From Escherichia phage MirsaeidiM_Esher1: a stretch of DNA of 64,000 nucleotides. The stretch is taken from the sequence record PQ438048.1. One strand, written 5' to 3'. The position numbers and the translations under genes are program-made. The first letter of the stretch is position 1; every line of letters begins with the position of its first letter. This document shows positions 55,718 to 56,199 of the stretch, piece after piece. The notes under the pieces are model-generated. The model did not search any database. It saw only the letters and a list, made by a program, of their open reading frames with translations, and was not told the origin of the DNA.

Positions 55718-56199
55718 TGCACACCTCCATTCTTGTTAAGATGTTTCGTACTGTACTTCATACTGATCTATAGATCAAGTATTATTTATAATAATTTATT
55801 ATTTTATTTTTTAATTGATAGAAGTTGATCTGTACGTACCAGTTCTGATACACTGTACCTGTTTGTTAGATCTAATAATTATTTATTATTAATATTTAAT
55901 AATTATTAATCTAGTACGGAGTACAGTACTTGAGTACAGAGTACTACATCAACAACCTAAAACCTTAACTCGCTGCGCTCGTTAATAGATTTCTAGGGTA
56001 ACATACTTCGAACACAAAAGTCAAGAGTTTTATTAAAATTATTTTCTGTGTGCAAAAAACCTTGCTTAAACAGGTAGCAATAGTATAGCCTATAACATAA
56101 GCTTCATAAGAGGCTCGTAGAGCAAGTTCCCTTACTAGGTAAGGTGATTTATCATCTTATATATAAAAAGTGCGTCAGAGACGCGTTTAGGAGGCTAGA
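55718..56199. promoter_or_regulatory. AT-rich divergent intergenic control region (candidate early promoters and/or replication origin)
   Basis: Flanked by diverging gene sets; palindromes GATCTATAGATC (55764-55775) and TTAGATCTAA (55865-55874), iterated GTAC motifs (55910-55946), AT-only runs, hairpin GCGTC-AGA-GACGC before first gene. Confidence 0.4.

Follow-up and report, generated by a model that had tools for sequence, protein, structure and literature searches.

A conserved hub of predicted sigma-70-type promoters around an AT-only tract in an intergenic control region of a phAPEC8-like coliphage

Introduction

The replication origins of phages T7 and T4 are promoters followed by AT-rich DNA. 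Promoters 1.1A and 1.1B of the T7 primary origin lead into an AT-rich region, and T4 oriF and oriG each consist of a middle promoter and then an unwinding element. AT-rich DNA beside a promoter may also be an UP element, the contact site of the polymerase alpha subunits. In the related phage rV5, four transcription units have been described, with sigma-70-like promoters genome-wide, 11 of which have an extended -10, and with bidirectional promoters at the point of divergence (PMC3606486). Here we describe a point of divergence in Escherichia phage MirsaeidiM_Esher1 (PQ438048.1), of which a stretch of 64,000 nucleotides was analysed (hereafter the window). The subject is the 482-bp intergenic control region at positions 55718-56199 (hereafter the gap), which the original prediction had taken for a divergent control region and a likely origin of replication.

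The source is a phAPEC8-like Phapecoctavirus (subfamily Stephanstirmvirinae), one of the E. coli myoviruses of ~150 kb. Two kilobases of the window are 98-99% identical to more than 60 Phapecoctavirus genomes, and the gap is 95-99% identical across more than 60. Public records carry no annotation for it beyond a 55-bp "repeat_region" in three Danish records, which is an automatic call on the AT-run repeat and is uninformative. We conclude, with a probability of about 0.7, that the gap is a conserved multi-promoter hub, in which three or four host-type (sigma-70-type) promoters would be arranged around an AT-only tract.

Results

The gap is truly non-coding, bounded by a leftward ATG at 55717-55715 and a rightward ATG at 56200. 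Both strands were scanned with a sigma-70 -35/-10 position-weight model that includes spacer penalties and a bonus for a TGn extended -10, and sites were ranked among the ~640,000 scored positions of the window. Ranks of 29, 34 and 46 are held by the three best promoter-like sites of the gap. Their hexamers resemble TTGACA and TATAAT and are separated by spacers of 17-18 nt, the 21 nt upstream are 90-100% A/T, and A2 and T6 of the -10 hexamer are kept in all three.

Two of these sites stand back to back. The predicted leftward promoter P_L1 (55750-55778, minus strand) consists of TTGATC (55778-55773), a 17-nt spacer and TACAGT (55755-55750). Its score is 10.2 (rank 46), the 21 nt upstream are 100% A/T, and its predicted start at ~55743 lies ~26 nt ahead of the ATG, with a ribosome-binding site GGAGG at 55728-55724. 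The predicted rightward promoter P_R1 (55825-55854, plus strand) consists of TTGATC (55825-55830), an 18-nt spacer with TG at 55846-55847, and TACACT (55849-55854); its score is 10.9 (rank 34), its upstream A/T content is 0.90 and its predicted start is ~55861. The P_R1 spacer contains an 8-bp palindrome, GTACGTAC (55832-55839), near the centre (~55838) of a large inverted repeat. The 46 bp that separate the two -35 boxes are occupied by the first AT-only run (AT run 1, 55780-55816, 37 nt). The AT runs are read here as UP elements because they are placed where the UP elements of promoters sit, as is the other long AT-only run in the window (47376-47406), which lies directly upstream of TTGACA-17-TAGACT ahead of a minus-strand gene. 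AT run 1 is most likely a tract that would serve P_L1 and P_R1 together.

Strong minus-strand promoter-like sites were also observed at 52498, 53263, 54391, 54978, 55535, 47372 and 49064. They share the form (A)CTATTGACA, ~14 nt, ATGT and TAG(G/A/C)(A/T)T, and are found across the tRNA cluster and ahead of the leftward genes, so promoters appear to recur many times along the leftward unit. The presence of consensus-like promoters along the tRNA region agrees with the rV5 description (PMC3606486).

The arrangement around AT run 1 is kept well beyond the genus. The gap was compared with those of phiWec188, phiWec179, phi92, Klebsiella phage phi1_175008 and Citrobacter phage Tr1; across other lineages of the subfamily, homologues of the first rightward gene show 33-57% identity. 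In blastn against the phiWec genomes, the right half of the gap could be aligned and the left half could not. The same promoter scan of phiWec188, phi92, phi1_175008 and Tr1 found, in this order, a minus-strand promoter, an AT run, a plus-strand promoter and a minus-strand TACCCT promoter. The first of these has TTGACT or TTGACC, a spacer of 17-18 nt, and TAGAGT, TACACT or TAGTAT. The AT-only run between the paired -35 boxes is 23-35 nt long, the boxes being 43-57 bp apart, and the minus-strand TTGAC(T/A)-17/18-TACCCT promoter lies ~100-160 bp past the plus-strand promoter. Counterparts of P_L1 and P_R1 are thus at the same place in all four other lineages. The divergent control region of the original prediction is borne out by this layout, in which back-to-back leftward and rightward sigma-70-type promoters flank AT run 1 in five lineages of the subfamily. 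Neither a second AT run nor a GTAC cluster was found in the gaps of the phiWec phages, phi92, the Klebsiella phage or Tr1, which contain 1-3 GTAC and 1-5 GATC sites each.

Within the genus, nine Phapecoctavirus gaps were aligned, and their differences are of the kind expected of promoter variants. Among the GATC sites of the gap, numbered from the left, the first is missing from phAPEC8, tuntematon and UP17. The third is missing from phAPEC8, where the P_R1 -35 box changes from TTGATC to TTGATA and so comes nearer to consensus. In BI-EHEC, the P_L1 -10 box is improved from TACAGT to TACAAT. EP57 (OR544956.1, a 130.7-kb record) has lost the P_L1 -10 box and most of the leader through a 38-bp deletion (~window 55729-55766), and a second deletion of 20 bp (~window 56088-56107) lies in the rightward leader; EP57 would be a natural variant with a deleted promoter, unless the record was misassembled.

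The strings quoted in the original prediction are all present in the gap: the palindromes GATCTATAGATC (55765-55776) and TTAGATCTAA (55866-55875, at ~+5 to +15 of the predicted P_R1 transcript), four GATC sites within 109 bp (55765, 55773, 55827 and 55869) and the GTAC-bearing block GGAGTACAGTACTTGAGTACAGAGTACTAC (55918-55947). These features were compared with the window, with the complete genome of the relative 536P1 (149,471 bp, rotated to its terminal repeat) and with 5000 dinucleotide-preserving shuffles of the gap. There are 10 GTAC sites within 194 bp of the gap, where the window rate predicts 0.5; the shuffles contain 2.4 on average and 0 of 5000 reach 10. GTAC is the most avoided 4-bp palindrome in 536P1 (observed/expected 0.31 under a second-order Markov model). 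That genome has 137 GTAC sites, 10 of which are in the gap, and its sole cluster with at least four per 200 bp is this one. The two AT-only runs (37 and 38 nt) exceed all others in the 149-kb genome, and their length was reached in 0 of 5000 shuffles. GATC behaves differently. Its four sites compare with 2.0 expected at the window rate, at least four occur in 12% of 482-bp windows, clusters of at least four per 110 bp are found three times in the window and four times in the genome, and observed/expected for the whole genome is 0.99. The number is high solely against the AT-rich composition of the gap itself (mean 0.86; 30 of 5000 shuffles reach 4). Of the features first noticed, the GTAC cluster and the AT-only runs are real and exceptional, and the GATC sites are unremarkable. 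The latter are mostly parts of the predicted TTGATC -35 boxes and of a TAGATCT motif. The core CTGTTAGATC of palindrome TTAGATCTAA is common to this phage, phi92 and Tr1. GATC/AGATCT was also considered as a recurrent operator and rejected: GTTAGATC, AGATCTGT and TAGATCT elsewhere in the genome are mostly in coding sequence and without promoter association.

Much of the exceptional composition can be traced to a copying event. The segment 55929-55874 (minus strand), which comprises the third GTAC block and the second AT-only run (AT run 2, 55873-55910, 38 nt), aligns in inverted orientation to 55747-55803, which comprises the first GTAC block and AT run 1, with a score of 40; the maximum in 300 shuffle trials was 31. 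The third block (55911-55945, with GTAC at 55914, 55921, 55926, 55934 and 55941) is made up of an inverted copy of the P_L1 -10 and leader together with a 20-bp local repeat (D3), which supplies the last two GTACs of the cluster. The outcome is a 183-bp imperfect palindrome centred near GTACGTAC, the single-strand fold of which has z = -4.7 against shuffles. Judged by these alignments, a young, Phapecoctavirus-specific inverted duplication of the P_L1 module, placed between convergent promoters, gave rise to AT run 2 and the GTAC block. The GTAC cluster is mostly copy history, because its founder GTACs are in or beside -10 regions (TACAGTAC, TACACTGTAC). As RNA hairpins or terminators the GTAC blocks are poor: only the minus-strand fold of block 3 modestly beats shuffles (z = -2.1), with no U-tract after it.

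The GTAC sites themselves are dispensable, because BI-EHEC has changed nine of the ten in the course of a wider purge; an essential GTAC motif is ruled out by these changes. The sites were mutated mostly to GTAT or ATAC, including all five of block 3. Over ~50 kb of aligned sequence (OL505078.1 47501-97500 against window 10636-63195), 25 of 50 scored GTACs were lost and two gained, at an identity of 96-98% and with GATC density unchanged. The loss looks like a lineage-specific purge of a restriction- or methylation-type target. Together with the genus-wide avoidance of GTAC, it points to restriction- or methylation-type pressure on GTAC and not to a GTAC-reading function in the gap.

The third of the high-ranking sites, P_L2 (55995-56024, minus strand), would oppose P_R1. 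It consists of TTGACT (56024-56019), an 18-nt spacer with TGn, and TACCCT (56000-55995). Its score is 11.2 (rank 29), its upstream A/T content is 0.90 (A/T tract 56028-56045) and its predicted start is ~55988. P_L2 is found in all lineages, and the segment 55958-56062 is identical in the nine Phapecoctavirus genomes save for the n of TGn. Immediately left of the 13-mer described below, the unit (C)CTTAAAA(CC) (55956-55968) varies in copy number among strains, with one extra copy in anhysbys and UP17.

Downstream of P_L2, at ~+8 to +20 of its predicted transcript, lies the conserved 13-mer CGAGCGCAGCGAG (55969-55981, minus strand), which includes GCGCAGC. Promoter and 13-mer form a cassette, TTGACT-N17/18-(TGn)TACCCTAA-N11-14-CGAGCG(N or NN)AGCGAG on the minus strand, with a -10 region of the form TGnTACCCTAA, and this cassette is the most conserved part of the gap. 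It occurs three times in 536P1, at 13.5, 52.2 and 130.4 kb from the left end. The two further copies, at 13,536 (-) and 130,455 (-), have the form TTGACT-17-TGnTACCCTAA-N11-14-CGAGCGATAGCGAG. There are three copies each in a phi92-like genome from IMG/VR and in a Klebsiella-like genome, and at least two in a phiWec-like genome; copies were seen at five loci besides those of 536P1. Behind copies 1 and 2 of 536P1 there is a ribosome-binding site and then a gene of matching orientation. Copy 2, which the GC-skew minimum at ~131 kb would place near the other divergence point, reaches a ribosome-binding site and small genes after ~135 nt. For two of the three 536P1 copies the sequence downstream is clearly that of an early-looking operon, and in the phi92-like genome the counterpart of copy 3 stands ahead of a gene with its own orientation. 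The search pattern for the cassette also matched a family of small viral contigs at 20 IMG/VR loci, which have in common a long, near-perfect palindrome starting CTCGCTTCGCTCGTTGGGGGGGATAGGGTATAGATTCATTC; their match to the phage cassette is probably due to chance, but the palindrome is in itself striking.

Across 13 distinct cassette copies, the 13/14-mer varies in its loop only (GCA, GAA or GATA), the CGA and GAG flanks are invariant, and the core is GCGCAGC, GCGAAGC or GCGATAGC. Since variation is confined to the centre, the core is always GCGNAGC or GCGNNAGC, the sequences of a DNA mini-hairpin family described as extraordinarily stable and known from the priming sites of G4, St-1 and alpha3, from RSF1010 ssiA and from the early promoters of N4 (PMC13037366). 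On the non-template strand, the cassette element might form such a GNA or GNNA mini-hairpin. RNA folding of 55960-55995 with a nearest-neighbour model gave nothing remarkable (z = -1.2), and sheared G.A pairs are outside that model. The cassette reads as a promoter and leader module that is reused, and not as a signature unique to an origin.

The rightward leader probably contains a fourth, gene-proximal promoter, P_R2 (56127-56155, plus strand), with a weak -35 TTCCCT (56127-56132), a 17-nt spacer and TATCAT (56150-56155), from which a start near 56162 would be expected. Its score here is just 6.9, and its counterparts are strong: TTGACT-17-TACCAT in Tr1 scores 11.5 and TTGACA-17-TATCAT in the Klebsiella phage 13.4. 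The conserved block GGTGATT-TATCAT (56143-56155) aligns to these two promoters. The bases of P_R2 overlap a possible hairpin, AAGGTGA/TCATCTT, in which phiWec179 has one compensatory change. TTGCTT-16-TATAGC (56062-56089) was considered as a second rightward promoter and rejected in favour of P_R2 for its low score and a -10 without T6; it is partly deleted in EP57 and phAPEC8. Farther downstream, the hairpin GCGTC-aga-GACGC (56172-56184, plus strand) is followed after 5 nt by the ribosome-binding site AGGAGG (56189-56194). Equally spaced counterparts have other stems (GCGTT/GACGC in phiWec, GCTC/GAGC in phi92 and in Tr1), covariation for the two leader hairpins is weak, with one compensatory pair, and on the minus strand the hairpin is terminator-like and followed by T5. 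Most simply, the mRNA leader would contain it as a stem-loop. In phiWec-type phages, the leader contains an extra 70-aa gene between the P_L2 cassette and a conserved GGTGATTTATCATC block (2159-2371 in the phiWec188 and phiWec179 loci, 616-828 in that of PsgM04F), which has its own extended -10 promoter-like site, TTGTGT-16-TGcTATAGT.

The gap is flanked on the left by the first leftward gene (55532-55717, minus strand; 61 aa; PHROG 26411, function unknown). A C-x2-HH...C-x2-C pattern and then a strongly acidic tail, DDDNVLDDDEGWEDLDW, were observed in its product, which would fit a small zinc-binding early protein. Left of it are two further small genes, 10-11 tRNA genes (52656-54739) and, farther out, the terminase gene. 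The eleventh tRNA (53958-54042, minus strand) has an Rfam call of 39 bits (gathering score 29) and no ARAGORN call. On the right, the first rightward gene (56200-56523, plus strand; 107 aa) is followed by small overlapping genes, a metallophosphatase and an RNA ligase. The flanking small proteins matched no Pfam family, and their PHROG matches are all of unknown function. Rfam at the gathering threshold returned tRNAs only, and a permissive search of 55500-56400 gave matches at chance level.

Discussion

In this study, we identified in the gap a set of promoter-like sites whose sequence matches, ranks and conservation are direct observations. We infer from them that transcription is initiated here, and early in infection: the gap would be the start of two diverging early transcription units that are served by host RNA polymerase. 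P_L1 would fire left into small genes and then the tRNA cluster, and P_R1 right into small early genes, with AT run 1 serving both -35 flanks as a shared UP element. Some 130 bp rightward, P_L2 would oppose P_R1 through a consensus -35, an extended -10 and the unusual hexamer TACCCT. Its cassette would be a reusable one, in which CGAGCG(N/NN)AGCGAG at ~+8 to +20 might fold into a mini-hairpin. The weak P_R2 and the hairpin before the ribosome-binding site would complete the rightward leader.

Several points weigh against this interpretation. The frequencies of the position-weight matrix are approximate only, and the -10 hexamers (TACAGT, TACACT and TACCCT) are imperfect. A transcriptome, 5'-end map, promoter map or origin map was not found in the literature on Phapecoctavirus and Stephanstirmvirinae. 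Nothing else in the genome resembles the twin AT-only runs and the 183-bp palindrome, and a plain promoter needs neither; AT run 2 and the GTAC block are accounted for as history and not as function. Finally, the extreme conservation of the 13-mer points to a role beyond promoter activity, which a promoter hub does not name.

The original prediction read the gap as an origin of the E. coli oriC or P1 oriR kind, with Dam GATCs methylated by host or phage beside an AT-rich unwinding element. The AT-only tracts would qualify as such an element, although the UP-element reading fits them equally well. The four GATCs in 109 bp exceed the local AT-rich expectation and the relatives' gaps hold GATCs too, but the density is that of the genome, with an equal number in 12% of windows and four such clusters in 536P1, and GATC sites 1 and 3 are missing from close relatives. 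The claim of an origin built on clustered Dam sites is not supported. Moreover, the consensus DnaA box TTATCCACA does not occur in the 149-kb 536P1 genome, a relaxed box (TTWTNCACA) is not enriched (19 in the genome, one in the gap), and no iteron array or iteron-like direct repeats were found in the gap. The original prediction also states that the phage encodes an adenine methyltransferase. A Dam-type (DPPY) enzyme was found neither in the window nor in 536P1, by a motif search of all open reading frames (ORFs) and by tblastn with an E. coli Dam sequence. The one methyltransferase-like ORF of the window (6791-7591) carries NPPF and matches PHROG 799, "DNA methyltransferase", weakly (E = 1e-10). 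Pfam gave no match for the two NPPF ORFs, and a "putative DNA N6-adenine methyltransferase" is listed in one paper on a Phapecoctavirus (PMC13096147). The cumulative GC skew has a minimum at the gap, which is one of four turns (~16, 52, 95 and 131 kb); the gene map of the window and the rV5 report, whose authors saw the same pattern when they sought an origin (PMC3606486), tie such turns to changes in transcription direction and gene orientation. GC skew was rejected as an origin indicator because it appears confounded with transcription direction at all four turns. We consider a Dam-controlled origin very unlikely; origin function in general is neither supported nor excluded by these features. 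The gap might also be a physical genome end, with a terminal repeat or packaging start. The terminase gene is ~5 kb to the left, and the database record of phage nieznany starts within the gap. Short direct terminal repeats have been reported in Stephanstirmvirinae (328 bp in Schickermooser, PMC6563267; 342 bp in BME3, PMC12210895), and the terminus reading was therefore tested. The 329-bp repeat at both ends of the Schickermooser record is absent from the window, and its place in 536P1 is 52 kb away from the gap, so a terminus in the gap is ruled out for practical purposes. In the nieznany record (MN850598.1 / NC_052659.1), positions 10-461 match the gap, which is split over both record ends; the AT-only inverted repeats probably caused a break in the assembly, and the break would not be a physical terminus.

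Other possibilities accept the promoters of the gap and give them or their surroundings a further task. In an origin of the T7 or T4 oriF/oriG type, one of the promoters would double for replication: the P_L2 transcript would prime, the mini-hairpin would favour a persistent RNA-DNA hybrid and the AT tract would unwind for the primase-helicase. AT run 2 (55910-55873) lies at ~+78 to +115 from the predicted P_L2 start at ~55988, in keeping with the promoter-plus-unwinding-element anatomy of those origins, and the mini-hairpins of this family occur at the G4 and St-1 priming sites and in RSF1010 ssiA (PMC13037366). The twin AT runs and the large palindrome are found nowhere else in the genome, the related rV5 has genes for a gp4-like primase-helicase and for a family A polymerase (PMC3606486), and DNA primase/helicase and DNA polymerase I appear in the annotation of a Phapecoctavirus (PMC13096147). 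However, an AT-only tract is missing downstream of the other two cassette copies, of which copy 2 runs straight into genes; in other genera, the sole AT run downstream of P_L2 is the one between the back-to-back promoters; AT run 2 itself is young and genus-specific; and an independent replication signal is lacking. We regard such an origin as unlikely. Somewhat less likely still is a temporal switch, in which the GAGTAYA repeats and TAGATCT would be operators for a phage or host protein that balances P_R1 against P_L2. The five AGTAC units are spaced 5-8 bp apart, BI-EHEC keeps the unit as GAGTAT, CTGTTAGATC recurs in phi92 and Tr1, and the face-to-face promoter pair is kept in five lineages. 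Yet the other genera keep the convergent pair without any GTAC block, the duplication accounts for the block, AGATCT-type motifs are not enriched at other promoters, and no candidate regulator was identified, the neighbouring small proteins being without a known family. It is also conceivable, if rather doubtful, that the cassette at 55969-56024 is a previously undescribed regulatory module of Stephanstirmvirinae with the mini-hairpin as its functional part. It could then be an R-loop or priming signal, as in a transcription-primed origin with the AT tracts, or the target of a phage factor that shuts early transcription off. A conserved promoter hub accounts best for what is shared among the lineages.

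Phages of the phAPEC8, ESCO and BASEL types are widely used for phage-therapy work. The results presented here provide a testable promoter map for an unannotated 482-bp gap in more than 60 genomes of therapeutic-candidate coliphages, and they remove an origin call that was tempting and unsupported. The promoter-plus-mini-hairpin cassette, with three copies per genome and subfamily-wide occurrence, is a candidate handle for the control or engineering of early genes, and the mini-hairpin cassette is the one part of the gap that merits experiment. If the mini-hairpin does act in priming, a motif of single-stranded DNA phages would be linked to a large double-stranded DNA phage. BI-EHEC, for its part, is a clean natural case of the purge of a restriction-type site, with half of the scored GTACs lost over ~50 kb.

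Among known systems, E. coli oriC and P1 oriR, which are controlled by Dam and SeqA, resemble the gap in having an AT-rich segment with GATCs nearby; unlike them, the gap lacks DnaA boxes and arrays of 13-mers or iterons, and its GATCs are at the average density of the genome and not conserved. The T7 primary origin and T4 oriF/oriG share with it a promoter followed within ~100 nt by a very AT-rich tract, and relatives of the phage have a T7-like primase-helicase and a family A polymerase. In contrast to those origins, the AT tract of the gap is equally well placed as an UP element and the other cassette copies are without it. The mini-hairpins of G4, St-1, alpha3, RSF1010 and N4 differ from that of the cassette in position: here the element lies ~8-20 nt downstream of an ordinary double-stranded sigma-70-type promoter, on the non-template strand, and has CGA...GAG flanks, which could add tandem G.A pairs. 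The N4 promoters are read by the virion RNA polymerase, whereas no hairpin-reading polymerase is reported for rV5 (PMC3606486) and none was searched for in the present genome.

The closest likeness is to the strong early promoters of T5 and T4 and to the bidirectional pair predicted between genes 10 and 11 of rV5, as examples of divergent sigma-70 promoters with an UP tract. Like those promoters, the predicted promoters of the gap have 17-18-nt spacers, two instances of TGn, pure A/T at -40 to -60 and short leaders into genes with ribosome-binding sites on both sides, and their layout is kept in relatives. Unlike them, they are accompanied by an unusually long pure A/T tract (37 nt), by an inverted duplicate of this tract and by a third promoter that opposes the rightward one. 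The gap is an element of an ordinary kind, and a new, well-resolved instance of it.

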